The notes under the pieces were generated by a model. It saw nothing but the letters and a program-made list of their open reading frames with translations. It ran no database searches and had not been told where the DNA came from. A DNA stretch of 64,000 nucleotides from Candidatus Omnitrophota bacterium (lineage in GTDB: Bacteria; Omnitrophota; Gorgyraeia; Zapsychrales; Zapsychraceae). The position numbers and the translations under genes are program-made. The DNA lies in assembly GCA_028280285.1 (NCBI GenBank), contig JANQMA010000026.1:64822-128821 (forward strand), in the 5' to 3' direction. Position 1 is the stretch's first letter. The number at the start of each line of letters is the position of its first letter. This document shows, piece by piece, positions 1 through 64,000 of the stretch.

Positions 1-769
1 GAATATTGCCGAGATTAATGTTGGTGTTTATTGTTTTAAGGCGCAGGAGCTTTTTAAAGGCCTTAAATCGATTCAATTAAATACGAAGAAGAAAGAATTT
101 TATTTAACGGACATTATTGAACTCTTTACGGACAACGGACAGAAGGTTGCGGCTATTGAAACGGAAAATCCGGAGGAAGGTTTAGGCATTAATTCCCGTG
201 AGGATTTAGCGACGGCTGAGGCCGTTATTCGCAAACGTGTTTTACAAGATGTTATGGCGCAGGGCGTCACTGTGATTGATCCTAATTCAACCCATATTGG
301 GGCGAATGTTAAAATTGGACAGGATACCGTGATTAAACCTTTTACGGTGATTGAAGAGGATGTCAAGATTGGCAGTGGTTGTACGATTGGGCCGTTTGCG
401 CATCTGCGTCCTGGTGTGCGTATTGAGGATCATGTTGAGATCGGCAACTTTACAGAAGTATCACGGACAAAAATCGGGGCGAAAACACTGGTTAAGCATT
501 TCAGCTTTTTAGGCGATGCCACAGTCGGTAAAGGCGTTAATATTGGCGCTGGTGTTGTAACAGCCAATTATGATGGTGTCAGTAAAAATGCGACGAAAAT
601 AGAAGACAATGCTTTTATCGGTTCGGATGCGGTTTTAATTGCTCCGGTTAAAGTCGGAAAAAAGGCGACGGTTGGCGCCGGAAGCGTTGTAACGAAAAAA
701 GCTAACATTGCGGATAACACAACGGTCGTGGGCAGCCCGGCTAAAAAAGTAGAGAAAGGCAACGCATGA
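1..769 (+). CDS. glmU: GlmU, bifunctional UDP-GlcNAc pyrophosphorylase / GlcN-1-P acetyltransferase (5' partial, runs off window start)
   Basis: The frame of the 254..769 ORF stays open back to nt 2 and translates as an N-terminal nucleotidyltransferase-like sequence (EINVGVYCF...YLTD). The C-terminal part is a left-handed beta-helix with hexapeptide repeats. It is followed by prs, as in the glmU-prs-ctc-pth cluster. Confidence 0.85.
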   Translation, partial: NIAEINVGVYCFKAQELFKGLKSIQLNTKKKEFYLTDIIELFTDNGQKVAAIETENPEEGLGINSREDLATAEAVIRKRVLQDVMAQGVTVIDPNSTHIGANVKIGQDTVIKPFTVIEEDVKIGSGCTIGPFAHLRPGVRIEDHVEIGNFTEVSRTKIGAKTLVKHFSFLGDATVGKGVNIGAGVVTANYDGVSKNATKIEDNAFIGSDAVLIAPVKVGKKATVGAGSVVTKKANIADNTTVVGSPAKKVEKGNA

Positions 770-1713
770 ATGGTCTAGCGCTTATTGCCGGCAATGCCAA
801 TGGCGAATTAGCTCAAAAGATAAGTGACGAACTGGAAGTTCCATTGACGGACGTTTTGGTGTCGCGTTTTAGTGAAGGGGAAGTTAGGGTTGAGATTTTA
901 GAAAATATTCGTGGGAAAGATTTATTTATCATACAGCCCACATGTCCACCGACGAATGATAATTTGATGGAGTTGTTGATTATCATGGATGCGGCCAAGC
1001 GGGCTTCGGCCGATAGGATTACGGTGGTTATGCCGTATTATGGGTATGCACGTCAGGATCGTAAAGATCAGCCGCGTGTTCCGATTACAGCCAAACTTGT
1101 TGCCAATTTAATTGTCGCGGCAGGGGCTGACCGTGTTTTGACAATGGATTTGCATGCCAATCAGATTCAGGGGTTTTTCGATATTCCTGTGGATCACTTG
1201 TATGCCATTAATGAGTTGTGCAGTTATTTCAAATCAAAGGATTTGAAAGATCCGGTGGTTGTTTCCCCGGATGTGGGTGGTATTAAGATGGCCCGTGCGT
1301 ATGCCAAGCAGCTCAACGCAGGGTTGGCCATTGTTGATAAAAGGCGTTATTCACCGACGGATACGGAAGTGATGCATATCCTTGGTGAGGTGGAAGGCAA
1401 AACAGCTATTTTGGTTGATGATATCTGCGCAACCGCAGGATCATTGGTCGAGGCTATTGAGGCGTTAAAAAATGCAGGTGTCGGCGATGTGTATGCGACG
1501 GTGAGTCATGGTATACTTTCCGGACCTGCGATTGAGCGTATTCGTGGGTGCACTGATTTAAAAGAGCTGGTTATTACCGATAGTATTCCTCTCGCTGAGG
1601 ATAAGCAATCGGATAATATAAAGGTTGTTAGCATTTCATCGTTGATCGCAGAAGCGATTCACCGGATTCATGATGAAGAATCGATCAGTGTTTTATTTGA
1701 GGATAAGAAATAG
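766..1713 (+). CDS. prs: ribose-phosphate pyrophosphokinase
   Basis: 315 aa with the PRPP synthetase hallmarks (DLHANQIQGFF, VVVSPDVGG, ILVDDICATAGS). Its ATG overlaps the glmU stop. Confidence 0.9.
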   Translation: MNGLALIAGNANGELAQKISDELEVPLTDVLVSRFSEGEVRVEILENIRGKDLFIIQPTCPPTNDNLMELLIIMDAAKRASADRITVVMPYYGYARQDRKDQPRVPITAKLVANLIVAAGADRVLTMDLHANQIQGFFDIPVDHLYAINELCSYFKSKDLKDPVVVSPDVGGIKMARAYAKQLNAGLAIVDKRRYSPTDTEVMHILGEVEGKTAILVDDICATAGSLVEAIEALKNAGVGDVYATVSHGILSGPAIERIRGCTDLKELVITDSIPLAEDKQSDNIKVVSISSLIAEAIHRIHDEESISVLFEDKK

Positions 1714-1792
1714 ATTTGTTGTTAGTTGTCGGTTGATGGTTGTTGGTGATCCAAGCTCCAACAACAAACAACGAACAACCAACAACAATTAA
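1714..1792. repeat. imperfect palindrome, gttgtt-unit family (ttgttgttagttgtcggttgatggttgttgg ... ccaacaacaaacaacgaacaaccaacaacaa)
   Basis: It is an inverted repeat in the prs/rplY intergenic region and belongs to the same family as 15324-15397. Confidence 0.7.
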
Positions 1793-1821
1793 AATAACAA
1801 ACAAAAGAGACGGTAAATCAA

Positions 1822-2550
1822 ATGGAAGAAGTAAAGTTAGATGTACAGGTAAGAAAAATTGTCGGAACGCGTTCGGTTAAATCAACGCGTCGTGACGGGT
1901 TTGTGCCGGCTGTTGTTTATGGTGGGGGCAAACACGGACCGACATCGATTAAAGTTGACCGGCGTAATTATGAAAAAATAAAACGTGAGCATCACGGACA
2001 AAGTGTTGTTTTTCATCTTAATGTCCTTGAGGGCGATAAAAAATTACGCGATTACTCTGCGATCGTCAAAGAAGAGCAGTTTGAGCCGGTTTCCGAAGGT
2101 CTTTTGCATATCGATTTCAAACGTATTTCTTTAAAGGAAGAGATCGAGGTCAAAGTTCAGATCAAGCTTATGGGTGAGGCTGTCGGTGTTAAGCAAGATG
2201 GCGGATCACTTGATCAGGCGATATGGGATCTGGATGTTGTGTGTTTGCCGACTAATCTTCCGGAGGCGATTGAAGTGGATGTCTCTGAACTTCATATCGG
2301 GCACGGTATTCATGTTAAGGATTTGAAGCTTCCACAAGGGGTAACAACCAAACATGATCCAGACTCTATGATCGCATCTGTTGTTGCGCCTATGAAAGAG
2401 GCGGAAGAGGAACCAGCGGAATCTGATACTGATGCGGAACCGGAAGTCATTGGAGAAAAAGAGCGTCAAGAGAAGCGCGAGACTAAAGAGGCAGAACAAG
2501 CAGCTAAAGAACAAGACGCAGAGGCTTCTGAGTCAGAAGAAAAATCTTAA
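1822..2550 (+). CDS. rplY: 50S ribosomal protein L25 / general stress protein Ctc, with an acidic C-terminal tail
   Basis: The N-terminus carries an L25 family motif (VYGGGKHGPTSIKVD). Its position between prs and pth supports the call. The C-terminus is an E/K/A-rich extension. Confidence 0.8.
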   Translation: MEEVKLDVQVRKIVGTRSVKSTRRDGFVPAVVYGGGKHGPTSIKVDRRNYEKIKREHHGQSVVFHLNVLEGDKKLRDYSAIVKEEQFEPVSEGLLHIDFKRISLKEEIEVKVQIKLMGEAVGVKQDGGSLDQAIWDLDVVCLPTNLPEAIEVDVSELHIGHGIHVKDLKLPQGVTTKHDPDSMIASVVAPMKEAEEEPAESDTDAEPEVIGEKERQEKRETKEAEQAAKEQDAEASESEEKS

Positions 2551-2569
2551 ATAAGGCAAGGATATTGTT

Positions 2570-3148: not shown

Positions 3149-3156
3149 AACGAAAC

Positions 3157-3483: not shown

Positions 3484-3530
3484 CAGTTAATTTAAAACAT
3501 CAATGAGAGTGATTGGTAAGGAGGAGTAAA

Positions 3531-3974: not shown

Positions 3975-4059
3975 TATTGATTATCGAGAGATGTTATCCC
4001 ACCGTTTGCACAAGCGGTGGGATTATCCCACAACATCTCATAGCAAGGAGAGAAGCTAA

Positions 4060-4314: not shown

Positions 4315-4316
4315 TT

Positions 4317-6064: not shown

Positions 6065-6068
6065 CTGA

Positions 6069-6097: not shown

Positions 6098-6146
6098 CAG
6101 ACCAACTGAAATGAAAGCCTATATAATCTAAATAGTTAGGATTTAT

Positions 6147-13346: not shown

Positions 13347-13433
13347 TGATGCTAGATCCTGGATGCTAGATGCTTGTGTGGCTAGTACAACTAGCATCAA
13401 GCATCTAGATACTAGCATCCAGAATATAGAAAG
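13347..13433. repeat. palindrome of the gatgctag-unit family, in the lysS leader
   Basis: The inverted repeat is tgatgctagatcctggatgctagatgcttgtgtggctagtacaactagcatcaagcatctagatactagcatccagaat. Confidence 0.75.
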
Positions 13434-13446: not shown

Positions 13447-14904
13447 ATGGAAGTGGATGAATTAAAACAGGTTAGATTAGATAAACTTAATAATCTAAAG
13501 GAGTTAGGCATTACTCCTTATGGTCATAGATTTGAACGCAGCCACGCGCTTGCGGATGTTTTAAATGATTTTAAGGAAGATCAAAGTGTTGTGGTGGCTG
13601 GACGCATCATGGCCAACCGTAAACATGGCAAGGTTATGTTTATGGACCTTCAAGACCAGACGGCGCGGATGCAGCTTTTTGTCAAGAAAGATAACTTAAC
13701 GGAAGAGACATTTGCTTTGCTTAAAGAGCTCGACATTGGTGATATTATCGGTGTTAGCGGAGAGACTTTTGTGACCAAGATGGGGGAAGAAAGTCTGCGG
13801 GTCAAAGATCTAACGGTTTTATCAAAGTCCCTTTTAACACTACCGGAAAAATTTCATGGGCTTAAGGATGTTGATACGCGTTACCGTCAACGCTATGTTG
13901 ACTTAATTATAAATAATGATGTGCGCGATGTTTTTATCAAGCGCAGTAAGATTACCTCACTGATCCGTAATTATCTTGACGGGCAAGGTTTTCTGGAAGT
14001 AGAAACGCCGATGCTGCAGACAATGGCAGGCGGCGCGCGCGGCAGACCTTTTAAGAGCAAACATAATGCTTACGGTTTGGATGTTTTCCTGCGTATAGCC
14101 CCGGAGCTTTATCTGAAGCGTCTTTTAGTCGGGGGGCTCGAACGTGTTTATGAGCTTAACCGTAATTTCCGTAATGAAGGTGTTTCCACGCGGCATAATC
14201 CGGAGTTTACTATGCTTGAAGTATATCAGGCCTACGGAAATATTGAGGATATGATGAACCTGACGGAGAACATGATCAGTTCTTTGGCTCATGAAATCAC
14301 GGGCTCCTATAAAGTGACATTTGCCGGTAAAGAAATTGATTTTACGACTCCCTGGGAGAGACGTTCCTTTGCACAAGTGGTTAAAGATAAATTTGACATT
14401 AATCCTGAAGATAATGCCGAAGCGATGCTTGCCAAAGTCAAAGCTGTGCGTGGCAATGTGAAGGTTGAGACGCTGACCAAAACAGCGATAATGAATATCG
14501 TCGAGGAGGCATTAGAAGAGGATGAGATTACCAATCCCGTCTTCTTCACCGATTATTTTACATTTCTTTGTCCGCTGGCCAAGACACGTCCGGATAATGC
14601 GCATATATCGGAACGTTTCGAGGTGTTTGTGGCCGGTATGGAAATCGGCAACGCGTATTCCGAGCTGAATGATCCGCAGGAACAGAAGGAAAGGTTGTTA
14701 GAGGATTTGGGAGAAGATTTAGAAACAGGAAATCGAACGATTGATGAGGATTTTGTCAATGCCCTGGAATACGGCATGCCGCCGGCCGGAGGACTGGGCA
14801 TTGGTATTGACCGACTCGTTATGCTGCTTACAAATTCACCGTCAATCCGGGATGTTATATTATTTCCGCTTATGAAACCAGTAGGGCATGACGAGGAGAG
14901 CTGA
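13447..14904 (+). CDS. lysS: lysyl-tRNA synthetase (class II)
   Basis: The N-terminal anticodon-binding OB domain and the class II motifs (FRNEGVSTRHNPEFTMLE, GGLGIGIDRLVM) are present. The start was moved downstream of the upstream palindrome. Confidence 0.9.
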   Translation: MEVDELKQVRLDKLNNLKELGITPYGHRFERSHALADVLNDFKEDQSVVVAGRIMANRKHGKVMFMDLQDQTARMQLFVKKDNLTEETFALLKELDIGDIIGVSGETFVTKMGEESLRVKDLTVLSKSLLTLPEKFHGLKDVDTRYRQRYVDLIINNDVRDVFIKRSKITSLIRNYLDGQGFLEVETPMLQTMAGGARGRPFKSKHNAYGLDVFLRIAPELYLKRLLVGGLERVYELNRNFRNEGVSTRHNPEFTMLEVYQAYGNIEDMMNLTENMISSLAHEITGSYKVTFAGKEIDFTTPWERRSFAQVVKDKFDINPEDNAEAMLAKVKAVRGNVKVETLTKTAIMNIVEEALEEDEITNPVFFTDYFTFLCPLAKTRPDNAHISERFEVFVAGMEIGNAYSELNDPQEQKERLLEDLGEDLETGNRTIDEDFVNALEYGMPPAGGLGIGIDRLVMLLTNSPSIRDVILFPLMKPVGHDEES

Positions 14905-15323: not shown

Positions 15324-15397
15324 TTGTTGTCTGTTGTTAGTTGTTTGTTGTTGGATTTTCAAACTAACAACCATCAACTAACACCCAACAACTGGAG
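15324..15397. repeat. imperfect palindrome, gttgtt-unit family (ttgttgtctgttgttagttgtttgttgttgg ... ctaacaaccatcaactaacacccaacaac)
   Basis: It lies between the hypothetical gene and lolE. The tracked lolE ORF start falls inside this element. Confidence 0.7.
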
Positions 15398-16603: not shown

Positions 16604-17284
16604 ATGATACTCGAAGCCGTCAATATTCACAGGTCGTATGCATATGACGACAATGAAATAGAAGTTTTGAAAGGAATTGATTTTAAGGTTAAAGCCGGCG
16701 AGGTCGTGGCCATTATTGGTCCGTCTGGCGCGGGAAAATCAACGCTCTTAAATATTATCGGTGGATTGGATCAGCCTAATCAGGGAGAAGTATTTGTTAA
16801 TCAACAGAATGTTTACGGATTGACAGAGAAAAAAAGGGCTGAGCTGCGTAATCAAAGCATCGGTTTTGTCTTTCAGTTTTATTATTTGCTACCGGAGTTA
16901 ACGACGCTTGAAAATGTTGTTTTACCGGCACTCATCAAAGACAAAACAGATAAATTTGCTGAATACACCGAGCAGGCAAAAGAATTACTCGATTGGATGG
17001 GCCTTTCAGAGAGGCTTAAGTCCAAACCGAATCAACTCTCTGGAGGTGAGCAGCAGCGCGTGGCCATGGCGCGTGCTTTAGTGAATCAACCGCAGCTCAT
17101 TTTGTGTGATGAGCCGACAGGAAATTTAGATTCGGCCAGTGGTAAGGAACTCATTGATTTGTTATTTGCCTTTAATAAAAAAAATAAACAGACCTTTGTT
17201 ATTGTGACACATGATGAAAATATAGCGCAGTGTTCTCATCGTCGCGTACATATTAAAGATGGGTTGTTGGTTGACGATCAATAA
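16604..17284 (+). CDS. lolD: ABC transporter ATP-binding protein LolD
   Basis: It has Walker A (GPSGAGKST), the ABC signature LSGGEQQRVA, and Walker B (ILCDEPTGNLD). Confidence 0.85.
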   Translation: MILEAVNIHRSYAYDDNEIEVLKGIDFKVKAGEVVAIIGPSGAGKSTLLNIIGGLDQPNQGEVFVNQQNVYGLTEKKRAELRNQSIGFVFQFYYLLPELTTLENVVLPALIKDKTDKFAEYTEQAKELLDWMGLSERLKSKPNQLSGGEQQRVAMARALVNQPQLILCDEPTGNLDSASGKELIDLLFAFNKKNKQTFVIVTHDENIAQCSHRRVHIKDGLLVDDQ

Positions 17285-17295
17285 TTGAGAATTGA

Positions 17296-17478
17296 GAAAG
17301 AAAAAGTAAAAAAGAAAATTTAAAAGTTAAAATTTAAAATCGTATTTAGTAGTTAGTAATTGGTAATTAGAGATTGCAACCCCGAACCAATTACTAATTA
17401 CCAACGACTAAATACCAAACACAATTTAATTTTTTAATTTATTTCAATTTTTCATTTTCTTTTTTACTTTTAATTTTT
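17296..17478. repeat. long AT-rich inverted repeat (arms ~85 nt, phased A-tracts) with core gtatttagtagttagtaattggtaatt
   Basis: The left arm is gaaaaagtaaaaaagaaaatttaaaagttaaaatttaaaatcgtatttagtagttagtaattggtaattag. The loop is agattgcaaccccgaacc and the right arm is the reverse complement. It lies in the lolD/ilvE intergenic region. Confidence 0.75.
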
Positions 17479-17507
17479 TATTTTTACATTTTTATAGAGA
17501 GGACATC

Positions 17508-18371: not shown

Positions 18372-18380
18372 ATGGATTTT

Positions 18381-18440
18381 GGCCTTGGGGGTTGGGACTT
18401 AGGACTTAGAATCCAAGTCCCAAGTCCTAACGCCTAAGTC
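18381..18440. repeat. imperfect palindrome (gggacttaggacttagaat ... caagtcctaacgcctaagtccc)
   Basis: It is an inverted repeat in the ilvE/mcsB intergenic region. Confidence 0.6.
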
Positions 18441-18455
18441 CCAGGTACTAAAATT

Positions 18456-25933: not shown

Positions 25934-25998
25934 GCGTCGTTAGTTGTTGGTCATTAGTCATTAGTCATTGGAGGACGAATGACTAAAGACCAGACGCA
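25934..25998. repeat. imperfect palindrome (gcgtcgttagttgttggtcattagtcattagtcatt ... aatgactaaagaccagacgc)
   Basis: It lies in the ispD/ispF intergenic region and contains a gttagttgttgg unit and a tandem tcattag unit. Confidence 0.6.
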
Positions 25999-26512: not shown

Positions 26513-26580
26513 GTCTGTTTATTGTTTAATGTTTAAAGTTTGGGTGATGTAATAAACAATAAACATTAAACTTTAAACGG
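26513..26580. repeat. palindrome of the gttta-unit family (tgtttattgtttaatgtttaaagttt ... aaacaataaacattaaactttaaacgg)
   Basis: It lies in the ispF/cysE intergenic region and belongs to the same family as 55371-55426. Confidence 0.7.
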
Positions 26581-26625
26581 ACTTGGAGTTATTTTATTAA
26601 TATATTTTTTAACAGGTAGGAAATC

Positions 26626-27333
26626 ATGGGATTCATAGGTTTTATTTTTACATTATTTTTAATCACGCTTGCCTTTAGTTTACTGGCGGCTGTCTTTTTT
26701 GCCGAGGAGATTAAATCAACACGGGAAAAAGATCCGGCGGCAGGCGGCTATTTGCAGATTATTCTGCTTTATCCGGGTTTGCATGCGCTCATGGCGCATC
26801 GGATCAATCATCGTTTATGGAAACTAAAATTCCAGTTTTTGGCGCGGCTCTTGTCACAAATAGTCCGTTTTATAACCGGCATTGAAATTCATCCCGGAGC
26901 GCAAATCGGTAAAGGGCTGTTTATCGATCATGGGATGGGTGTTGTGATTGGTGAGACGACTATTGTCGGTGATGATGTGACTCTTTTTCAAGGCGTGACA
27001 CTCGGCGGGACAGGTAAAGAATGCGGCAAAAGGCATCCGACCATCGGCAATAATGTGGTCATCGGAGCCGGGGCTAAAGTGCTTGGCAACATAACGGTTG
27101 GGGATAGTTCTTATATTGGAGCCAATGCGGTTATTTTAAAAGATATTCCTAACAATGCGACGGTGGTTGGTGTGCCGGGGCGTGTGGCCAAACATGAAGG
27201 CAAAAAGGTTGATTCATTGGATCATGTGCACATTGCCGATCCGGTTATGGTGCATATGCGTGATTTGATCAAACGCGTTAAACATTTGGAAAAACACGAA
27301 GAAAACCAAGGCGAAAATGGCGATGGCATTTAA
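26626..27333 (+). CDS. cysE: serine O-acetyltransferase
   Basis: It aligns along its length with the short-form CysE (DPAA...GLHA...[30 protein letters not shown], hexapeptide repeats). It carries an unusual hydrophobic N-terminal extension of about 20 aa. Confidence 0.85.
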
Positions 27334-27948
27334 GGGTAAATTTATTACGTTTGAAGGCTCCGAAGGTTCAGGCAAGAGCACGCAGATGGCATTGCTTAAA
27401 AAATATCTTCAGAAAAGAAAGTGTAAGGTTATTGTTTTGCGTGAGCCCGGTGGCGTTAAGATCAGCGAGACGGTAAGGCGTATTCTTTTGGATACAAAAA
27501 ATAAGGAGATGAATAAAATCTGTGAGACGCTGCTTTACATGGCGGCGCGTGCTCAGCTCGTCGAAGAAAAACTGATTCCGGCCCTTAAAGAAGGTAAGGT
27601 TATTCTTTGTGACCGTTTTTTGGATTCAACCGTTGTTTATCAAGGATACGGCTGCGGGATTGATATTAAGACGGTGCAGTCTATCGGTAAGTTTGCCACG
27701 CAGGCATTGAGCCGGATATGACACTGTTTTTTGATATTGATGTTAAAAAAGGCATGAAGCGTATTCAAAACCGTAAACTGGACCGCATTGAGCAGCGCAC
27801 GCTTAATTATCACAATAAGGTACGCCGTGGTTATTTGGATATGGCACGTAAATATCCCAGGCGGATTAAGGCGATCAAGGTTGATCGATCGATTGATGAG
27901 ATTCATGAGGTTGTTAAAAAATACGTAAATAAAATATTAAAATTGTAG
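27317..27948 (+). pseudogene. tmk: thymidylate kinase interrupted by a -1 frameshift near nt 27708-27715
   Basis: The 27317..27721 ORF carries the P-loop FITFEGSEGSGKST and DRF-DST-YQG. The 27718..27948 ORF in another frame begins with the expected continuation PDMTLFFDIDV...R-DRIE. One base is missing around gagccggat. Confidence 0.7.
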
Positions 27949-28007
27949 GGGCGGCTCGTGAGCCGCCCTAATATGTCGATAAATTAGGGTCGCTCGCGAG
28001 CGACCCG
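27948..28007. repeat. nested GC-rich hairpins (gggcggctc gtg gagccgccc, ctaat...attag, gggtcgctc gc gagcgaccc)
   Basis: Two perfect 9-bp GC stems are joined by a third inverted repeat, in the tmk/holB intergenic region. No U tract follows. Confidence 0.7.
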
Positions 28008-28028
28008 TACAATATTAATATAATTCTT

Positions 28029-29796: not shown

Positions 29797-30092
29797 AAAG
29801 TAAAAAGTCAAAAATAAAATGAAAAAATGAAATAAATTTATAAAGTAAAATTAAAATTCGTATTTGGTAGTTAGTAATTGGTAATTGGTTTTCTAAAAAA
29901 TAATAATTTAAAAATGATATATTATTGTGCCAAGCAAAAAATATTAAAACTCTTGAAATCCATTTTCTATTATGAATCCGATTTATAAATTGTTCACCAA
30001 TTACCAAATACCAATTACTAAATACATTTTTTATTTTTTATTTTCTTTCAATTTTTTAATTTTCTCTTTTAATTTTTATTTCACATTTTTGA
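29797..30092. repeat. long AT-rich inverted repeat of the same family as 17296-17478, with a ~110-bp central insert
   Basis: The arm core cgtatttggtagttagtaattggtaattgg matches ccaattaccaaataccaattactaaatac on the other side. The arms carry phased A-tracts. It lies in the yaaT/metG intergenic region. Confidence 0.75.
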
Positions 30093-30103
30093 ATTAATAA
30101 CTT

Positions 30104-31606: not shown

Positions 31607-31697
31607 TTAGCGTTTAGCGTATAGCGTTTAGGGAGTGGTTAGTTATTAGTCACTAATCACTTTCTATTCGCTATCCGCTATGCGCTGTACGCTAAAA
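31607..31697. repeat. palindrome of the tagcg-unit family (tagcgtttagcgtatagcgtttaggga ... tcgctatccgctatgcgctgtacgctaaa)
   Basis: It lies in the metG/mtnA intergenic region. Confidence 0.75.
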
Positions 31698-34106: not shown

Positions 34107-34197
34107 CGCTTAGCGTATAGCGTTTAGCGAATAGGAAGTTTTCAGTGTTGACAACTGCAGGCTTTCTAAACGCTAACCGCTATACCCTATACGCTAA
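34107..34197. repeat. palindrome of the tagcg-unit family (gcttagcgtatagcgtttagcgaatagga ... ctaaacgctaaccgctataccctatacgctaaa)
   Basis: It lies in the tsaE/tsaB intergenic region. Confidence 0.75.
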
Positions 34198-34204
34198 ATT
34201 CATT

Positions 34205-34884: not shown

Positions 34885-34982
34885 AATTAAGCGTATAGGG
34901 TATAGCGTTTAGCGAATAGGTAGTAATTAGTGTTTTAGTCTGATAACTACCTAAACGCTATGCGCCGTACGCTAAACGCTAA
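34885..34982. repeat. palindrome of the tagcg-unit family (aagcgtatagggtatagcgtttagcgaataggtagt ... actacctaaacgctatgcgccgtacgctaaacgct)
   Basis: It lies in the tsaB/alr intergenic region. Confidence 0.75.
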
Positions 34983-34987
34983 ATATT

Positions 34988-36157: not shown

Positions 36158-36240
36158 TGATCTGTGATCTGTGTTCTGTGATCTGGAAAATAATATCATA
36201 GATTTATTCGGACCACAGACCACTGAACACGGACCACAAT
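36158..36240. repeat. imperfect palindrome (gtgatctgtgatctgtgttctgtgatctgg ... ccacagaccactgaacacggaccacaat)
   Basis: It lies in the alr/chrA intergenic region. Pairing is better with G-U wobble, so it may be an RNA-level structure. Confidence 0.6.
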
Positions 36241-37326: not shown

Positions 37327-37410
37327 ATTTAGCGTCTAGCGGATAGCGGTTAGCGTTTAGGAAGTAATCAGTAACTAGTCGCTATACGCTGTACGCTAAA
37401 CGCTAGTAAG
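37327..37410. mobile_element. tagcg-family palindrome inserted at the chrA 3' end, flanked by a ~57-bp duplication of the gene end (MITE-like)
   Basis: The element (tagcgtctagcggatagcggttagcgtttagga ... gctatacgctgtacgctaaacgcta) separates two copies of gt(t/g)aatgtgtttttgttggtaggggtgagtgct...ttttaa, at 37270-37326 and 37411-37467. Confidence 0.6.
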
Positions 37411-37523: not shown

Positions 37524-37572
37524 GCCTATTCAACTGACGCAGTTGAATGGGTAACGCAGTTGAATGGGTAGG
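37524..37572. repeat. hairpin of the cctattcaactg family, with the right arm tandemly duplicated
   Basis: The sequence is cctattcaactgacgcagttgaatgggtaacgcagttgaatgggtagg. Confidence 0.65.
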
Positions 37573-38771: not shown

Positions 38772-38798
38772 GCCTATTCAACTGCGGCAGTTGAATAG
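38772..38798. repeat. perfect hairpin of the cctattcaactg family, immediately after the OCD stop
   Basis: The hairpin is cctattcaactg cg gcagttgaatagg. Confidence 0.7.
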
Positions 38799-38824
38799 GT
38801 AGTATTTATATTGAGGAGAAAATT

Positions 38825-39352: not shown

Positions 39353-39385
39353 AAATTTCGGGGACATAATACATAATTATTAACT
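39353..39385 (+). repeat. 30-nt 3'-flank repeat aaaatttcgRggacataatacataaNtatt (copy 1)
   Basis: It immediately follows the thioredoxin-fold gene stop. The second copy is at 40751-40785, after the lipoprotein stop. Confidence 0.6.
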
Positions 39386-39557
39386 AAGCCTGCTCCGTTC
39401 AATACTGCGTTCTACAAAATTTAAATGTTTGCATGTTTAAATTTTGCAGTACTCGTGTTGAACTCCGCAGGTAAATTCGTTGTAACAACTTACGTTGCTC
39501 CCGCTGCATTATTACGAATGCTGGCAGCGGGATCTGCCGTAAGGTGAACACTCATTT
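39386..39557 (+). repeat. ~100-nt repeat (copy 1) plus a variable hairpin, ending in cattt immediately before the gmhB ATG
   Basis: aagcctgctccgttcaatactgcgttctacaaaatttaaatgtttgcatgtttaaattttgcagtactcgtgttgaactccgcaggtaaattcgttgtaa is near-identical to 42795-42894. It is followed by the hairpin cccgctgc...gcagcggg. Confidence 0.7.
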
Positions 39558-40750: not shown

Positions 40751-40785
40751 AATTTCGAGGACATAATACATAACTATTTTGAAAT
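40751..40785 (+). repeat. 30-nt 3'-flank repeat aaaatttcgRggacataatacataaNtatt (copy 2)
   Basis: It immediately follows the lipoprotein stop and lies upstream of the SDR gene. Confidence 0.6.
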
Positions 40786-42314: not shown

Positions 42315-42515
42315 ATGATTAAAATACGTGATATAGAAAAAGCGGTGTCAAGTCTACCCAAAAAAGATTTTATGAAATTTCGTGCATGGTTTCATAAATT
42401 CGATGCGCTTAAATGGGATGAGCAGTTGAAAAAAGACGTCCACAGCGGTAAGCTGGACAAGCTTGCTGAAAGTGCGCTCAAAGATTTCAAAGATGGTAAA
42501 TGCAAAGAATTATGA
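42315..42515 (+). CDS. putative addiction-module antitoxin (small partner of RelE/ParE toxin)
   Basis: 66 aa with a WDEQL...GKLDKLAESALKDFKDGK-type C-terminus. It overlaps the downstream toxin gene by 16 nt. Confidence 0.55.
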   Translation: MIKIRDIEKAVSSLPKKDFMKFRAWFHKFDALKWDEQLKKDVHSGKLDKLAESALKDFKDGKCKEL

Positions 42516-42766
42516 AGCATTTAACCAGTCCTTCTTTTTGGAAATGTTACGAACGCCTGCCTTCATCTATTCGGAAAATAGCTGACAAAAATTTTACTTT
42601 ACTTAAGAAGAACGCAAAACACCCTTCACTTTATTTTAAGAAGATCGGCAAGTATCGTTCAGTTAGAATTGGCACCCGTCATCGAGCACTTGCGGTTGAG
42701 AATGATAAGGATTTACTCTGGTTCTGGATTGGCTCGCATGCGGATTACGATAAGCTCGTTAAATAA
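42500..42766 (+). CDS. RelE/ParE family toxin
   Basis: 88 aa. The KYRSVRIGTRHRALAVENDKDLLWFWIGSHADYDKL motif matches the RelE/ParE fold signature (R...R..Y-less ParE type). Confidence 0.7.
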   Translation: MQRIMKHLTSPSFWKCYERLPSSIRKIADKNFTLLKKNAKHPSLYFKKIGKYRSVRIGTRHRALAVENDKDLLWFWIGSHADYDKLVK

Positions 42767-42794
42767 TAGAGGGCGGCACCCCGTTTAATTAAAA

Positions 42795-42939
42795 AGCCTG
42801 CTCCGTTCAATACTGCGTTCTACAAAATTTAAATGTTTGCACGTTTAAATTTTGTAGTACTCGTGTTGAACTCCGCAGGTAAATTCATTGTAAGACTTAT
42901 GTTCAGCGCTGTGCGCTTCCATAAGTCTAACATTCATTT
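42795..42939 (+). repeat. ~100-nt repeat (copy 2) plus a variable hairpin, ending in cattt immediately before the methyltransferase ATG
   Basis: The ~100-nt core matches 39386-39485 with about 3 mismatches. It is followed by the hairpin agacttatg...cataagtct. Confidence 0.7.
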
Positions 42940-43573: not shown

Positions 43574-43600
43574 CCTATTCAACTGCCGCACTTGAATTGG
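43574..43600. repeat. hairpin of the cctattcaactg family, immediately after the methyltransferase stop
   Basis: The hairpin is cctattcaactgccgcacttgaattgg, with 2 mismatches. Confidence 0.65.
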
Positions 43601-46533: not shown

Positions 46534-46760
46534 TGGAATGCCCACTTCGGCTGGGTATATTTCATTTTAGCAAGCAGCCTCGTGGGATAACTTCGCTGTA
46601 ACAGTTTACGTTCGTCGCGGTAATAATAATTTACAAAATCTGCTTTCGTAAATCACATTTTTTGCTTCGCAAAATAATGTGATTGTCTCCAGCAGTAAAT
46701 TCGCAGACGTTTCACTATAGTTTAGCTTCGCTGGCGCTTGCTAAACTATCTGCTCATTTA
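46534..46760 (+). repeat. degenerate relative of the 39386/42795 element (gtaaattcgcagacg...hairpin...ctgctcattt)
   Basis: It shares the gtaaattc...gtaacagtttacgtt...cattt layout and contains the hairpin tagtttagc...gctaaacta. It lies between the helicase and lptG. Confidence 0.45.
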
Positions 46761-49786: not shown

Positions 49787-49853
49787 GATGCTCGTTGCTA
49801 GATGCTGGTTGCTAGGCTCCACGAGCGACTAGCATCGAGGATCTAGCATCCAA
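49787..49853. repeat. palindrome of the gatgctag-unit family (gatgctcgttgctagatgctggttgctagg ... cgagcgactagcatcgaggatctagcatcc)
   Basis: It lies in the divergent region between comF on the minus strand and the small secreted ORF. Confidence 0.65.
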
Positions 49854-49874
49854 AATCTAAGAATTGGTCATAAT

Positions 49875-50186
49875 ATGAAAAGACTACTGCTTTTAGCTTG
49901 TTTTATCTTTGTTTCTGCCGCTCCTGCAGCCTCCTTTTTGTATGAAATCAAGATGTCTTCCACGGAGGAAATTAAGGCCATGAATGACAAGGCCTTGACC
50001 GATGCCTATATTGAGGCCAAGATTGAAGAAAAGGCCAGCCGTGAATTTGTGGAGGCCGCCGGGTTTAATTCCGCTAAAGATTATGGTAACCGGAAAAAAC
50101 TTTTGCGTTACATATTTGATTTGCGGCGCGAAATCGGCACGCGGGCATCGATTAATATCGATGATATTGATAAGTATTTGGAGTAA
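49875..50186 (+). CDS. hypothetical small secreted protein
   Basis: 103 aa with a signal peptide and no other motif. It is followed by a 25-bp-stem hairpin. Confidence 0.4.
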   Translation: MKRLLLLACFIFVSAAPAASFLYEIKMSSTEEIKAMNDKALTDAYIEAKIEEKASREFVEAAGFNSAKDYGNRKKLLRYIFDLRREIGTRASINIDDIDKYLE

Positions 50187-50187
50187 T

Positions 50188-50244
50188 AATTAAGGGGACA
50201 CAATACTTAATTAAAAAATAATTAAGTATTGTGTCCCCTTAATT
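50188..50244 (+). terminator. perfect 25-bp-stem hairpin after the small secreted ORF
   Basis: The hairpin is aattaaggggacacaatacttaatt aaaaaat aattaagtattgtgtccccttaatt, with no clear U tract. Confidence 0.45.
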
Positions 50245-50267
50245 ACGAAAAATAGAAAGAAGGACGC

Positions 50268-50822: not shown

Positions 50823-50837
50823 CGAATAAACAAACAG

Positions 50838-50898
50838 TTGCTCGTTGCTAGATGCTAGTCGCTCGTGGATGCTAGCAACCAGCAACAAGCAACCAGCA
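50838..50898. repeat. palindrome of the gatgctag-unit family (gttgctcgttgctagatgctagtcgc ... gatgctagcaaccagcaacaagcaaccagcaac)
   Basis: It lies in the pyrE/maf intergenic region. Confidence 0.65.
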
Positions 50899-50903
50899 AC
50901 TAA

Positions 50904-52235: not shown

Positions 52236-52662
52236 AATCCTATTTTGTTTGGTGTGTGTCTTTTTGTCTTTTGGATGTTCGGCCCAGGCGCGTGACCAAG
52301 TGTGTATGAAAACGTATTGTTTTGATGTTGAGGTGATGCGCACAGCCGAGGAGCAAAGCCGCGGTATGCAGAATCGTGCACAAATAACCGAGAATGAAGG
52401 CATGTTGTTTGTGTTTAATTATGATGGCAGACATTCTTTTTGGATGAAGAATACACTAATCGCGCTTGATATGATCTGGATCGACCGCAATAATAAAGTT
52501 GTGACGATTGTCAAACAAGCCGGACCTTGCCTATCAGAGCGTTGTCCTGTTTTTAAACCTGAAAAAAAAGCGCGGTATGTTTTAGAAATTGGTGGCGGCT
52601 TAAGCGACAAGCTTGGCATTACTGTTGGCGATGATGTCGTTATGCGAATTATTGACAAATAA
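52225..52662 (+). CDS. DUF192 family secreted protein
   Basis: It has a signal peptide and conserved MLFVF...W and DMIWID motifs typical of DUF192. Confidence 0.6.
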   Translation: MNIRILFCLVCVFLSFGCSAQARDQVCMKTYCFDVEVMRTAEEQSRGMQNRAQITENEGMLFVFNYDGRHSFWMKNTLIALDMIWIDRNNKVVTIVKQAGPCLSERCPVFKPEKKARYVLEIGGGLSDKLGITVGDDVVMRIIDK

Positions 52663-52787: not shown

Positions 52788-53219
52788 ATGAAACCGGTTA
52801 ATATACTTTTGGCAGAAGACAGCCCTACTGATGTGAAGATCATTGAATGGGTGCTGGAGAAAGAACTTCCGGAAAGACATTTATTTAAGGTAGGTGATGG
52901 CCAACAGGCCCTCGATTTTATTTTTCATACAGGTGATTATGAGGGTAAGGAAGATAAGGCGCCAACACCGGATTTGATTCTGCTTGATATAACAATGCCG
53001 AAAGTGGATGGTATTGAAGTGCTTAGAAAGGTTAAAGCCGACCAACGGTTTTGTGATATCCATGTGGTTATCTTAACTCATTCTCAGGATGAAGAAGATT
53101 TAAACAAGAGCTTTGAGCATGGCGCTGTTAGCTTTGTCCGCAAGACAGAAACCTACGAAGAGCTTCATAGTGTTCTTGAATTATTCCGTTCGTATTGGAC
53201 GGATAAACATGGTGATTAA
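52788..53219 (+). CDS. stand-alone response regulator receiver domain protein
   Basis: It has a CheY-like fold with the acidic pocket (LLAED), the phospho-acceptor D in LLDITMP, and a conserved K. Confidence 0.8.
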   Translation: MKPVNILLAEDSPTDVKIIEWVLEKELPERHLFKVGDGQQALDFIFHTGDYEGKEDKAPTPDLILLDITMPKVDGIEVLRKVKADQRFCDIHVVILTHSQDEEDLNKSFEHGAVSFVRKTETYEELHSVLELFRSYWTDKHGD

Positions 53220-53221: not shown

Positions 53222-53292
53222 TAAAAAAGCCGTAGGCCATAAGCTGTAAGCCATATGATATGGCTTACAGCTTATGGCCTACTGCTTTTTTG
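53222..53292. terminator. bidirectional rho-independent terminator between convergent genes
   Basis: An ~29-bp-stem palindrome (agccgtaggccataagctgtaagccatat g atatggcttacagcttatggcctactgct) is flanked by an A tract and a T tract. Confidence 0.65.
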
Positions 53293-55370: not shown

Positions 55371-55426
55371 ATTGTTTAATGTTTAGAGTTTAATGTTTTA
55401 AACAATAAACATTAAATTTTAAACAA
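55371..55426. repeat. palindrome of the gttta-unit family (attgtttaatgtttagagtttaatgtttt aaacaataaacattaaattttaaac)
   Basis: It lies between the E2 and E3 cistrons, inside the pyruvate dehydrogenase operon. Confidence 0.7.
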
Positions 55427-56762: not shown

Positions 56763-56880
56763 AAATAGTGATAAAGTGATACAGTGATAGTAGTGGTAGT
56801 TAAAACTTTAATTTTTAAACATAAAGAGGCTTGAGTTTTACTATGAATATTGTTTTATCACTCAAGCACTTTATCACTTT
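56763..56880. repeat. long imperfect palindrome, gtgat-unit family (aaaatagtgataaagtgatacagtgatagtagtg ... cactcaagcactttatcactttagcactttta)
   Basis: It lies between the aceE and E2 cistrons, inside the pyruvate dehydrogenase operon. Confidence 0.65.
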
Positions 56881-56899
56881 AGCACTTTTAACGATTAAT

Positions 56900-59590: not shown

Positions 59591-59948
59591 ATTTTGCTCT
59601 TTCTGTTCTATATAAAGGTTAGAATATGTTGAAAAAAGTTGTAAAAGGTTGAAAGAGGGGTTAGGTTACCCAATGTTGCTTAGTGCTAATTAGAGTAACT
59701 TTTTGGAACATCATGCAACGTCAAATCTTTTTTCAACGTTTTCCAACCTATTTAAACCTTTTTGAACCTTAATATATTAATATAGTTATTATGTTTGTGC
59801 TTGTAAGCGAAGCTATTGTAGTATGCAAGGGAGTAATGTGCAAGCATATTTTGCTGTCTAATAGGCAATATAAGGTGATTATTCTGTTGTATGTGCTATC
59901 CATGATTGCTACAATTCTCCTAAGCGCGGAAACTTATTAAAGGACAAT

Positions 59949-61577: not shown

Positions 61578-61598
61578 ACTATGATATAATGCCCGACT

Positions 61599-62054
61599 AT
61601 GGGAGAGACAATTGCGACAAACAAAAAGGCCTTCCGCGATTTTGCGATTACCGAGAAGTGGGAGTGCGGGCTTGAGCTCATGGGGGCGGAAGTTAAGTCG
61701 GTGCGCAGCGGGCGTGTGAATTTTAAGGATACATTTGCGCGCATTGATGGGGGACAGGTATTTCTTCATAATCTTCATATTGAGAATTACGCGCAAGCGA
61801 GTTATATGAATGAAGCGGAAGATCGTGTTAGAAGGCTTTTGTTACATAAAAGGGAAATAAAGAAGATTGATCAAAAGGCCAGAGAAAAGGGGCTTACTCT
61901 TGTGCCGACCAAGGTCTACTTTAACAAACGTGGTTATGTGAAAGTCGAGATTGGTTTAGGCAAGGGTAAAAAGATGATTGATAAAAGAGAGACGATTAAG
62001 AAGCGTGATGTTAGTCGTGATATTGGACGGATGGTCAAACATAAGAATAGATAG
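61599..62054 (+). CDS. smpB: SsrA-binding protein SmpB
   Basis: The SmpB motifs (IATNKKAFRDFAI and GAEVKSVRSGRVNFKD), a KRE..K C-terminal tail, and the size fit. Confidence 0.9.
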   Translation: MGETIATNKKAFRDFAITEKWECGLELMGAEVKSVRSGRVNFKDTFARIDGGQVFLHNLHIENYAQASYMNEAEDRVRRLLLHKREIKKIDQKAREKGLTLVPTKVYFNKRGYVKVEIGLGKGKKMIDKRETIKKRDVSRDIGRMVKHKNR

Positions 62055-62068
62055 AAAATATTATTTTT

Positions 62069-63625
62069 ATGAACAAATCGACTCTAATTCCTTTATTTTT
62101 AATTTTATTTGTTTCACTTTTTTTAAGGATCTACGGGCTTAATCAGCAAGGACTCACCTTCATCGACGAGGGAACCTTTATTTATCGCGCCAAGACATTT
62201 CAACTTTTGGCCGAGCATTCCCATAATCCCATCCAACAGCCTGCCAATTACGCGGATAAAAAAATACTCTGGCTCCTTTCGGTTATGGCCGTATTGAGCC
62301 TAACGGATGGCTCGACGATTGCTGTTCAGCTTTTTTCCGTGTTGCTGGGCTTGCTTAGTATACTGTTTACCTTCGTTGTGGCCCAAAAGATTTATGGCTC
62401 AAGGGAAATAGGGTTATTAAGCGCAGCTGTTCTCGGTGTGTCTAATTTGCATATTTTCTACAGTCGTCTGGCCATGCCCGAGATGTTGAATTCGTTTTGG
62501 GTATTATTGATGGTTTTATTTTATTTGAATGCCATGGCGAAAGAAAAATCTGGCCGGTGGGCTTTTGCCTCAGGTGTCATGATGAGCTTTTCCTTTTTAA
62601 CAAATGTCTTTCGGGCCGGACTTATGCCCATTGCACTTCTCTTTATGAATTTTGGAATCGGATTACCTAAGACTTTTAAAACCAACAAAGATAAAACGCG
62701 GTGGGGGTTATATCTTTTAACGGCTGTTTTGTCGACGGTCGTTTTGGTTTTCGGTTTATGGCAGGTCTTAAAAATACAAGGCATTTGGTTATCCCCTTAT
62801 GCCGATGCTGTCAAATCATATATTGGCCAGCATTCTTCGGTGGTTTTCAGTTGGCCATCATTTTTGTATGCGTTAAGTTATATATTTTTTACCGAAGGTA
62901 AACATTATGCCGTCGTATTTTTTTGGGGATTATTTTTTATAAGAGGACGTTACTCAACATTGCTTCCGCTTCTGATTATCGGGCCTTATGTCTTAGCCTG
63001 GGCCTTTGTGGATGAGAAGGCGATCCGTGCATTGACGCCTGTATTGCCTTTCATCGCTATGTATGCAGCAGTAACCATTTATAACATCTATGGGCTTTTT
63101 AAGCCGCGATCACGGTTGCTCTTGATGGCGGCGATTGGGCTTTTGATCGTCGGGCAATTGGTGGGTTTGAGGAAAATTTATACCTTCCGCTCTGATCTTC
63201 TCCCGGCAATCGAATATATAAAACAGAAAAATGCAGGCGCGCGTGTTCTAACCACCAATCAACCGATTGCCCTGGCGCACGATTTTGATTTTCATCGTTA
63301 TGCCCAGCTTACCCAGCAGACCGAAGAGGAGGTGCGGATATTAAACCGGCAAGGGTTTAACTATTTGATAACAGATTTTGTTAAGTATGCGGTCAGTTCG
63401 GTTAATGGTTCCGATGGTATTCATATGAATCCATTTGTTATGAAGGTGGAGAAGAACTGCATCCCGCTTAAAACATTCCCGCATTTCAATGAAGGCCTGC
63501 AACGCTGGATGCTGATGGAGGTTAATCAGTATGCCGGTGATGTCATTTGGCTTGATCACCATATCACTAACCAAACCGGCCAACTTAGAGTCTACGATCT
63601 CGATCGGTGTTTGGAGAAGATATAA
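62069..63625 (+). CDS. GT-C fold membrane glycosyltransferase (PMT/ArnT, GT39/GT83-like)
   Basis: 518 aa with multiple TM helices, an acidic motif in the first periplasmic loop (FIDEGTF) and a soluble C-terminal domain. Confidence 0.55.
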   Translation: MNKSTLIPLFLILFVSLFLRIYGLNQQGLTFIDEGTFIYRAKTFQLLAEHSHNPIQQPANYADKKILWLLSVMAVLSLTDGSTIAVQLFSVLLGLLSILFTFVVAQKIYGSREIGLLSAAVLGVSNLHIFYSRLAMPEMLNSFWVLLMVLFYLNAMAKEKSGRWAFASGVMMSFSFLTNVFRAGLMPIALLFMNFGIGLPKTFKTNKDKTRWGLYLLTAVLSTVVLVFGLWQVLKIQGIWLSPYADAVKSYIGQHSSVVFSWPSFLYALSYIFFTEGKHYAVVFFWGLFFIRGRYSTLLPLLIIGPYVLAWAFVDEKAIRALTPVLPFIAMYAAVTIYNIYGLFKPRSRLLLMAAIGLLIVGQLVGLRKIYTFRSDLLPAIEYIKQKNAGARVLTTNQPIALAHDFDFHRYAQLTQQTEEEVRILNRQGFNYLITDFVKYAVSSVNGSDGIHMNPFVMKVEKNCIPLKTFPHFNEGLQRWMLMEVNQYAGDVIWLDHHITNQTGQLRVYDLDRCLEKI

Positions 63626-63690
63626 ATAGTGCCAGGTACTAATTATTAAAGTTATTTGTTTTTCAAGGGCCTGTGTGGTATTTTAAACAT

Positions 63691-63990
63691 ATGATTAGAA
63701 AATCAGACATATTTGCAACAATCGAAAAGAACTCTGAAGAAATCAAGCTTTTAGGAGTCAAGCGTCTGGCTGTTTTTGGCTCATTTTCCCGCTACACACA
63801 AACCAAAAAAAGTGATATTGATATTTTGGTTGAATTTAAACGTGGAAAAAAGACTTTTGATAATTTTATGGATTTAAAGCATCTTCTTCAAAAAAAGTTA
63901 AAGCGCAGAGTTGATCTTGTCACTAAATCTGCGTTAAAACCACAGTTAAGATCTGCTATTGAAAAAGACCTTTCCTATGCGGGACTCTAA
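63691..63990 (+). CDS. MNT-type nucleotidyltransferase (antitoxin of a HepT/MNT pair)
   Basis: It has the minimal nucleotidyltransferase motif (LAVFGSFSR...SDIDILVEF). Its stop overlaps an ATG (taATGtctatcta) that starts a + strand ORF running off the window, presumably HepT. Confidence 0.65.
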   Translation: MIRKSDIFATIEKNSEEIKLLGVKRLAVFGSFSRYTQTKKSDIDILVEFKRGKKTFDNFMDLKHLLQKKLKRRVDLVTKSALKPQLRSAIEKDLSYAGL

Positions 63991-64000
63991 TGTCTATCTA

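Follow-up and report, generated by a model that had tools for sequence, protein, structure and literature searches.

In a 64-kb stretch of the genome of a Candidatus Omnitrophota bacterium (contig JANQMA010000026.1, positions 64,822 to 128,821; hereafter the window), most gaps between genes hold long inverted repeats, and we find that each of these elements combines two tandem heptanucleotide arrays in convergent orientation; the elements are strongly self-complementary, structured into families, evolutionarily labile and located at gene boundaries. The design as such is already known, if little studied, its nearest described kind being the convergent tandem-heptamer pairs of Xanthomonas (PMC4692102). 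New relative to that kind are the many different motifs, the near-obligatory pairing and the unusual density. The sequence covered for this organism comprises the window and 3 kb more in short Logan contigs; gene starts were derived from open reading frames (ORFs) and family alignments, and since the arms are of low complexity, alignments between them are prone to slip. In the following, positions are counted from the first letter of the window, and the elements are referred to as H01–H18 (Table 1).

The long intergenic inverted repeats are real and far from what chance would produce. An initial annotation of the window had listed them from the sequence alone, and every coordinate on that list does hold a long imperfect inverted repeat; among the 89 inverted pairs in the window that lie no more than 250 nucleotides (nt) apart, the longest coincide with its entries. 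In an ungapped scan with loops of up to 60 nt, 17 elements reached a score of at least 14, compared with none in each of eight shuffles that preserve local composition, and 27 reached a score of at least 11, compared with one to four per shuffle. All 17 of the higher-scoring elements are intergenic. Among all gaps of at least 30 nt, most are filled by inverted repeats, with little else present. The arms also pair when folded as RNA: the 12 elements examined gave energies of -13.9 to -48.1 kcal/mol and z-scores of -2.9 to -9.0, and for each of them, none of 200 dinucleotide shuffles folded as well as the native sequence. The density of 2.3 elements per 10 kb is about 23 times that of other genomes, whose loci, 1.2 Mb in total, contained 0.1 per 10 kb, and the initial impression of an unusual density was therefore justified. 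Finally, an independent Logan assembly (L001, 6.9 kb) matches the window at 100% through three elements, which are thus not artefacts of one assembler; between the window and this sole second copy compared, there is no polymorphism in unit number.

In their general layout, three to six 7-nt units on the G-rich strand are followed by a spacer of 3–30 nt (60–106 nt in two elements) and then by the reverse-complement array. Each unit combines a conserved core of about 5 nt with one or two free positions. The period is evident from the autocorrelation of the arms, with means of 0.61 for lag 7, 0.54 for lag 14 and 0.22–0.31 for the other lags that are not multiples of 7; 16 of the 18 elements peak at 7 or 14, with lag-7 values between 0.55 and 0.76, the exceptions being H17 with a period of 8 nt and H18 with one of about 10 nt. 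Independently, Tandem Repeats Finder (TRF) reported matched pairs of period-7 arrays with 3.6–5 copies. The sub-units of 5–8 nt described initially therefore have to be corrected to a unit of 7 nt in these 16 elements. Stacking the units yields the consensus sequences NTAGCGN, GTTGTTN, G(A/T)TGCTN, GTTTAWN, GGACTTR, GTGNTCN and GTANTTR, and the 64 kb contain at least eight unrelated cores (TAGCG, GTTGTT, GMTGCT, GTTTA, GGACTT, GTGATC, GTAATT and GTCATT). Mismatches between the two arms of an element concentrate at the free phases, at one or two per heptamer: sorted by phase, the match rates are 0.35, 0.59, 0.78, 0.87, 0.96, 0.97 and 1.0, and the variance between phases is twice that of a permutation null. 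As the mismatches fall at fixed phases of the heptamer, the stem amounts to a ladder of approximately 5-bp helices broken every 7 nt, and either strand, as single-stranded DNA or as RNA, would form such a long stem.

A second constant is the orientation of the arms. In all 18 elements, the left arm contains more G than C and the right arm more C than G. This G-first polarity reads alike on both strands, and a C-rich-first arrangement would be equally possible. Of the period-7 arrays in the window, 16 of 18 are classed as arms of G-first pairs, and arrays with at least three units each form an arm of a pair. When the window is pooled with the other loci fetched, 25 period-7 hairpins are G-first and one is C-first (p = 8e-7), compared with a non-significant 34 vs 25 for the other long inverted repeats of the same sequences. 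TAGCGNN arrays occur in at least 120 metagenome loci; among the 80 that were analysed, picked regardless of pairing, there are 29 convergent G-first pairs vs three C-first ones, and about 37 more arrays are unpaired. An excess of roughly 10:1 is seen in two data sets other than the window. Two conceivable sources of this rule were considered and rejected. Gene orientation does not account for it, as unpaired TAGCG arrays are unbiased with respect to the strand of the upstream gene (16 vs 15). Likewise, the G-rich arms of the window carry 0.094 stop codons per nt, vs 0.061 expected from their composition, and its C-rich arms are nearly devoid of start codons (0.6 vs 8.8 per 100 nt), but GGGAATC, GGTTGCG and AAGGTGC arrays follow the rule without containing stops. 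Given that these high-GC motifs obey it, the provision of stop codons in all frames is not the general cause of the G-first arrangement.

The elements of one family are related by descent. The grouping proposed initially reflects true homology rather than a mere similarity in style, as judged by BLAST cross-hits and alignments, and a BLAST comparison of L001 with the window returned further members of the families, with E values between 1e-11 and 1e-14. The four TAGCG elements (H09, H10, H11 and H13) align over their full length, including the non-repeat centre AATAGGWAGTWATYAGT. Their left arms are 81–84% identical between copies and the right arms of H09 and H10 86%, whereas the two arms of one and the same element are only 71–76% identical; arms are thus closer between copies than within an element, which indicates that an already imperfect palindrome was copied as a unit. 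Similarly, the homology between H04 and H08 extends across some 200 nt, and the right arms of H07 and H16 agree in 24 of 25 positions though they lie 29 kb apart. Copies of the same family tend to cluster, with four TAGCG elements within 6 kb and two GMTGCT elements within 1 kb.

To what extent the two arms of an element are fitted to each other can be read from exchanges of arms in the folding calculations. Per arm nucleotide, swapped arms of the same family give -0.90 kcal/mol, an element's own arms -0.79 and arms of different families -0.32. Swapped arms therefore fold as well as native ones, the pairing is a property of the family motif and not of co-evolved partners, and co-adaptation of the arms of an element was rejected. 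We also rejected selection on the sense-strand RNA, for which there is no signal: G-T mismatches, which would be G-U wobbles in RNA, number 27, compared with 20 A-C mismatches and 74 transversions. Neither result supports the earlier suggestion of elements that act at the RNA level.

The genes around the elements are housekeeping genes. The window has a G+C content of 43% and a strongly positive GC skew; its plus strand carries nearly all genes up to 46.5 kb, including glmU, prs, L25, pth, metG, mtnA, thiL, tsaE, tsaB, alr and chrA, and the genes for the E1, E2 and E3 components of pyruvate dehydrogenase (PDH) lie on the minus strand. No tRNAs were found in the window, and no Rfam family matched at its gathering score anywhere in it, the region from 37.3 to 47 kb giving only sub-threshold chance hits. 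The initial annotation had identified tsaE/tsaB and the minus-strand PDH genes correctly, and it had rightly placed several elements between co-directional cistrons that presumably share an operon; the clusters in which the elements lie are conserved and operon-like. In 12 of the 13 cases with an upstream gene, the stem begins 0–20 nt past the stop codon. At their other end, H05, H09, H10, H11 and H15 stop 2–4 nt before an ATG without a Shine–Dalgarno (SD) sequence, several others (e.g. H04, H06, H07 and H12) leave a spacer of about 12–45 nt with an SD-like sequence, and H02, H14 and H18 lie in 5' leaders or divergent gaps. The five stems that nearly touch the start codon leave no space for a promoter. 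Moreover, a scan for promoter- and terminator-like sites between 25 and 45 kb yielded nothing above shuffles and flagged none of H06–H13 as terminator-like. As there is no room for a promoter between such stems and the next start, we infer from this arrangement that the elements are probably transcribed within polycistronic RNAs. The arms also interfere with gene finding: the mechanically called ORF starts at 13363, 15324 and 34145 fall inside hairpins and are probably wrong, the likely true starts being 13447, about 15403 and 34205. Gene callers are generally liable to extend genes too far into the G-rich arms, where TTG, GTG and ATG are frequent.

The lability of the elements becomes apparent from a comparison with relatives. 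The named best relatives of MtnA are nearly all Candidatus Omnitrophota/Omnitrophica, and its best match among the GTDB species representatives is 70%. The gene cluster radA-PIN/TRAM-ispD-ispF-hexapeptide-tmk-holB-PSP1-metG-mtnA-thiL-tsaE-tsaB-alr is syntenic in 16 Omnitrophota loci, of which 12 lack period-7 arrays, while L009, L017, L018 and L019 have them at varying junctions. The inserts of the window at metG/mtnA (93 nt) and tsaE/tsaB (98 nt) are absent from the same junctions in L002, L003 and L004. In L002/L003, whose MtnA is 92% identical at the amino acid and 77% at the nucleotide level, TAATTATG is found at metG/mtnA and an ATGA overlap at tsaE/tsaB. L004 (MtnA 79% identical in amino acids) has gaps of 1–25 nt at most junctions and a non-heptamer gap of 412 nt at metG/mtnA. 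L007 (78%), in turn, carries unrelated, G-first, heptamer-like hairpins at tsaE/tsaB, tsaB/alr and alr/chrA. As the state of a junction differs from relative to relative, gain, loss or replacement of the elements has been much faster than change in the genes, and the relatives with empty junctions show that no junction requires an element.

The same design is found in other Omnitrophota and also in Planctomycetota (L030, L047, L058 and L085). We found nothing relevant in the literature on heptamer repeats in Omnitrophota or Planctomycetes. In the high-GC metagenome loci L093 (2889–2990), L162 (54–160) and L117 (696–800), near-perfect (TAGCGGA)4/(TCCGCTA)4 or TAGCGAA arrays flank a central spacer, which in L093 includes a terminator-like GC hairpin with A/T runs; L162 belongs to a Steroidobacteraceae gammaproteobacterium, judging by its RimO. 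Separately, intergenic palindromes have also bloomed in a metagenome-assembled genome of the Planctomycetia with 39% GC (L032, 5319–13445): nine long inverted repeats were found in 14.6 kb, among them four palindromes of about 90 nt of the form AGGGACGTTTCC...GGGGACA and hairpins of 8-nt AAAAGTTY units.

Among the systems described, the GGGAATC heptamers of Xanthomonas campestris and X. axonopodis come closest. They typically form arrays of about four units (Rehm et al., 2015, PMC4692102), of which there are 70–75 pairs per genome, one array per strand in convergent orientation; the arrays are mostly intergenic, between co-directional ORFs and closer to the upstream one, and they differ in length and sequence between close species, with their function unknown (PMC4692102). 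Many of them are unpaired, 83% of the sites are common to the two species, and a single G-tract motif dominates each genome, which was studied as a former of G-quadruplexes (PMC4692102). The elements of the window resemble these pairs in unit length, pairing, convergent G-first orientation, position and variability. Unlike them, they comprise at least eight motifs in 64 kb instead of one dominant motif per genome, they are almost obligatorily paired, their sites are mostly not shared with relatives, and their units mostly have no GGG run, with only H05 containing some. As most motifs are without G tracts, the G-quadruplex reading does not transfer.

Cyanobacterial STRR heptamers are direct arrays of 7-nt units. 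Among the long simple-sequence repeats of bacteria, those with 7-nt units are the most frequent, an excess that was put down to slippage (cited in PMC4679880), which is the accepted source of such repeats (cited in PMC4679880 and PMC4692102). Heptanucleotide repeats of this kind (Mrazek et al., 2007, as summarised in PMC4679880 and PMC4692102) share with our elements the unit length, the intergenic location, a lineage-specific excess and slippage as the proposed source; however, they are described as direct arrays, and neither hairpin pairing nor a G-first order is part of their definition. The TAACTGA repeats of Beggiatoaceae and cyanobacteria are likewise direct and of a single motif, with one inverted case among 170 sets (MacGregor, 2015, PMC4679880) and no predicted secondary structure (PMC4679880). 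They are similar to our elements in that they are intergenic heptamers that abut starts without an SD sequence, provide forward-strand stops in all three frames and are scattered across phyla. The REP/BIME/REPIN families offer another parallel, being intergenic, palindromic, located within operons, present in many copies and transcribed as mRNA stem-loops, and the initial annotation had drawn this analogy. On the level of sequence, it does not hold: REPs are compact palindromes of 20–40 nt with a GTAG-type head and a link to a RAYT (Y1) transposase, whereas the heptamer elements have array arms of 25–50 nt and no common head. Integron attC sites (RYYYAAC...GTTRRRY) were rejected as well, because the polarity is opposite, with the G/T-rich arm first and the C/A-rich arm last in our elements, and because the neighbours are housekeeping genes in conserved order.

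Overall, we lean towards regarding the elements as labile palindromic repeats that are propagated by copying and slippage and are carried in transcripts as intercistronic stem-loops. According to this model, arrays would lengthen and shorten by slippage in steps of 7 nt, and whole elements would be copied, by one route or another, to new, mostly nearby sites close to stop codons, which would give rise to the families. The elements would have bloomed in this Omnitrophota lineage, where they would occupy the few bases between stop and start of otherwise abutting, co-transcribed genes and be carried along as RNA stem-loops rather than acting as terminators. Where the ancestral codons abut or overlap, a stem that brings the upstream stop and the downstream start together at its base might keep translational coupling intact and thereby allow the element to persist. 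More speculatively, an order in which the G-rich arm is made first might avoid exposing an unpaired C-rich stretch to Rho; a positive role, such as protection of 3' ends or RNase processing of the operon RNA, would be secondary and is equally speculative.

Several observations weigh against this model. The arguments from coupling and from shielding against Rho are speculation, and both co-transcription and the formation of stems in vivo are deduced from geometry only. With regard to copying, no transposase or RAYT was found among the 30 window proteins that were scanned against family libraries. The window and L007 have hairpins at the same three junctions, which could mean that selection favours a hairpin there, and neutral persistence alone does not explain why unpaired arrays are nearly absent here. 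Finally, some of the high-GC metagenome examples enclose a terminator-like GC hairpin, and one heptameric hairpin of the window itself, at 53223–53291, looks like a bidirectional terminator.

A broader conjecture we put forward tentatively and consider rather unlikely as it stands: one conserved, motif-blind and as yet undescribed process may make G-first pairs in phyla as distant as Omnitrophota, Planctomycetota and Gammaproteobacteria, with this genome, at 23-fold density and with at least eight motifs, representing a burst of its activity. Candidates would be a fold-back or template-switch synthesis restricted to nascent G-rich repeat strands, or a break at which repeats are added to the two 3' ends before these are joined. 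If true, such a process could address both the dominance of heptamers among the long repeats of bacteria and their constant convergence.

The elements could instead be classical MITEs (miniature transposable elements with inverted repeats), non-autonomous transposons in which heptamer arrays happen to serve as the terminal inverted repeats and which are moved in trans by a transposase encoded elsewhere, although we think this quite unlikely. Bacterial MITEs such as Correia/NEMIS, RUP and ERIC are also small and non-coding, have inverted ends, lie between co-transcribed genes and are present or absent among strains, and the families of related copies, their presence or absence at orthologous sites and their size of 60–300 nt would fit. 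However, MITEs are marked by defined termini and by target-site duplications and have a parent insertion sequence, and their arms are not tandem arrays. Three of the TAGCG copies, as judged by eye, are flanked by TAA or TAG on both sides, as a TWA-type duplication would be, but these flanks are indistinguishable from the ends of the heptamer units (TAGCG / CGCTA), and the two sides of H10 differ, one with TAG and one with TAA; the TAGCG alignments reveal neither a clear target-site duplication nor sharp, conserved termini. In addition, eight or more motifs would need several transposases or one that is blind to sequence, and a G-first rule that holds across phyla is not a property of MITEs. 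The absence from relatives' junctions is what mobile or fast-evolving repeats would show, and to this extent the initial proposal of mobile, MITE-like elements is supported; defined termini, a clear target-site duplication or a transposase among the 30 proteins were not found.

It appears improbable that the elements are terminators or attenuators, lacking a U tract or aided by a factor, that set expression levels within the clusters. Very stable stems shortly after stop codons would suit such a role, as would the hairpin at 53223 with its A/T tracts, the GC hairpins enclosed by high-GC relatives of the design and the proximity of the Xanthomonas arrays to the upstream ORF (PMC4692102). Yet for most stems, there is no run of T within 10 nt, and the absence of a U tract that had been noted initially holds for most elements, the exceptions being the T-rich tails of the AT-rich H04 and H08 and the A6/T6 flanks of the hairpin at 53223–53291. 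Intrinsic terminators, in particular, were rejected, because the elements mostly lack this tract, lie inside a cluster that is syntenic throughout the phylum and include the five stems directly before start codons. These starts belong to essential genes (a pheS-region gene, mtnA, tsaB, alr and maf), the scan from 25 to 45 kb flagged no element, three elements (H02, H14 and H18) lie in 5' leaders or divergent gaps, and relatives have the same genes with overlapping or abutting codons.

An explanation to which we likewise give little credence is that the arrays bind a protein, as double-stranded DNA, single-stranded DNA or RNA, through a 5-nt core that recurs every 7 nt in two opposed blocks. 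Iterons and the UAG-N4 repeats of HutP are precedents for binding arrays. The conserved core with its one or two free positions per unit would be expected of binding sites, and since an element's own arms are no better matched than swapped ones, exact pairing is not what is maintained. But at least eight unrelated cores in 64 kb, and others in relatives, would call for many proteins; no candidate binder was found, and the sites are not conserved at orthologous junctions. More improbable still is pure mutational debris from independent heptamer slippage in situ, with neither copying between sites nor selection: heptamer repeats are over-represented in many bacteria (as cited in PMC4679880 and PMC4692102), the elements turn over rapidly between relatives and about 37 of about 80 metagenome TAGCGNN arrays are unpaired, but slippage alone does not give 16 of 18 arrays that are paired and all G-first, nor clustered copies that share non-repeat centres and arm-specific variants.

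Much of the non-coding DNA of a streamlined Omnitrophota genome consists of these elements, which mislead gene callers and break short-read assemblies. To our knowledge, no cause has been tested for the excess of 7-nt repeats in bacteria, although it has been on record since 2007, and the always-convergent pairing in Xanthomonas has so far been left as a curiosity. The window adds that the pairing rule is independent of the motif and holds in at least three phyla, and arms that are not co-adapted, together with a fixed phase of mismatches, constrain any mechanism that may be proposed. Should operon mRNAs carry the stems, these would offer a system for studying how a stop codon and a start codon are coupled across a 90-nt hairpin.

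Table 1. Heptamer-type hairpins (H01–H18), related hairpins and other palindromes in the window
Feature	Position	Sequence and context	Folding
H01	1716–1788	GTTGTTN heptamer hairpin; prs/L25 (ctc) gap, 2 nt past stop codon	-30.9 kcal/mol, z -5.3
H02	13348–13425	GATGCTN heptamer hairpin in 5' leader; promoter-like TTGACA-17-TATAAT upstream; next in-frame ATG at 13447	
H03	15326–15392	Heptamer hairpin of the GTTGTTN family, as H01	
H04	17280–17493	AT-rich family, about 200 nt; inner arms of GTAATTG-type heptamers, outer arms A-rich then T-rich	
H05	18377–18452	GGACTTA heptamer hairpin; 5 nt past stop codon, 3 nt before ATG without SD	-38.8 kcal/mol
H06	25940–25995	Short GTCATTA heptamer hairpin; ispD/ispF gap	
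H07	26513–26582	GTTTAAN heptamer hairpin; ispF/hexapeptide-transferase gap	z -7.5
H08	29797–30095	Second copy of AT-rich family; PSP1/metG gap; arms 29797–29892 and 29994–30095; 106-nt loop insert	
H09	31607–31695	TAGCG hairpin filling the metG/mtnA gap; 0 nt after stop codon, 4 nt before ATG	-48.1 kcal/mol, z -9.0
H10	34107–34200	TAGCG family; tsaE/tsaB gap; tsaE stop codon TAG lies in first heptamer	
H11	34886–34984	TAGCG family; tsaB/alr gap	
H12	36158–36240	GTGATCT heptamer hairpin; alr/chrA gap, followed by AGGAG and ATG	
H13	37328–37405	TAGCG family; 1 nt past chrA stop codon	
H14	49787–49857	G(A/T)TGCTN family; divergent gap; ATG at 49875, 17 nt downstream	
H15	50836–50901	GTTGCTN family; 2 nt before ATG of Maf/M48 gene	
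H16	55372–55426	GTTTAAN family; between minus-strand PDH E2 and E3	
H17	56763–56888	8-nt units (GTGATAAA), 60-nt loop; between PDH E1 and E2	
H18	59609–59776	Long inverted repeat of about 10-nt units (GTTGAAAAAA); divergent gap upstream of PDH E1	
53223 hairpin	53223–53291	Heptamers GCCGTAG GCCATAA GCTGTAA GCCATAT; arms 97% complementary; A6/T6 flanks; past 3' end of plus-strand response-regulator gene (52788–53219); small minus-strand ORF ends at about 53300 (by eye)	
REP-like doublet	27934–28021	GTAG, GC hairpin GGGCGGCTCGTGAGCCGCCC and TA; 14-nt spacer ATATGTCGATAAAT; inverted second GC hairpin ending in GTAC	
CCTATTCAACTG short hairpin	37525–37568	3' arm duplicated in tandem at 37537 (17 nt x 2)	
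CCTATTCAACTG hairpin	38773–38799	Perfect 12 bp; 8 nt past stop codon	
CCTATTCAACTG hairpin	43574–43600	1 nt past stop codon	
GGGGACACAATACTTAATTA-motif palindrome	50187–50245	Perfect 27 bp; single motif copies at 39360 and 40757	

Not all palindromes of the window follow the heptamer design. The initial annotation had treated its whole list as variations on one design, which fits most entries but not the cctattcaactg hairpins and the element at 27948, which are other classes without heptamer arms. It had also missed the heptameric hairpin at 53223–53291 and two further classes, one with the GGGGACA palindrome at position 50187 and one with a palindrome at 52660 that is perfect. The element at 27948 is a REP-like doublet, whose head, spacer and beginning of the second hairpin recur after chrA in L007 (15536–15585); this family is thus shared between lineages, unlike the heptamer hairpins. 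At least one short-read contig of this organism breaks within palindromic elements: the ends of the L001 assembly, at window positions 27982 and 34919, fall inside this doublet and inside H11, which indicates that the repeats fragment the assemblies of this lineage. The CCTATTCAACTG hairpins of 12 bp occur at three sites with 3-nt loops, and none of them has a clear U tract. The motif GGGGACAYAATACWTAAYTA directly follows three stop codons (39360–39379, 40757–40776 and 50187–50245) and is present twice at the last of these, amounting to four matches vs 0.01 expected.

A structured repeat of about 95 nt (AAGCCTGCTCCGTTCAATACTGCG...GCAGGTAAATTC) has near-identical copies at 39386–39480 and 42803–42897 and a weaker one at 46534–46760. 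Behind the two near-identical copies lie hairpins that differ from one another, and then TCATTT-ATG of the next gene, which encodes a HAD hydrolase in one case and a methyltransferase in the other; there is no Rfam match to the repeat, which may represent a regulatory RNA, a leader common to these genes or a further mobile palindrome. In a gap of 715 nt immediately upstream of one of the copies, two small ORFs (42316–42770) encode an antitoxin-like protein of about 65 residues and a RelE/ParE-like protein of about 85, which look like a type II toxin-antitoxin pair. Finally, the thymidylate kinase gene at 27317–27930 looks split: its ORF ends at 27721, and relatives align up to about 27920 in another frame, the cause being either a frameshift or an error of the assembly, close to the T6 run at 27726.

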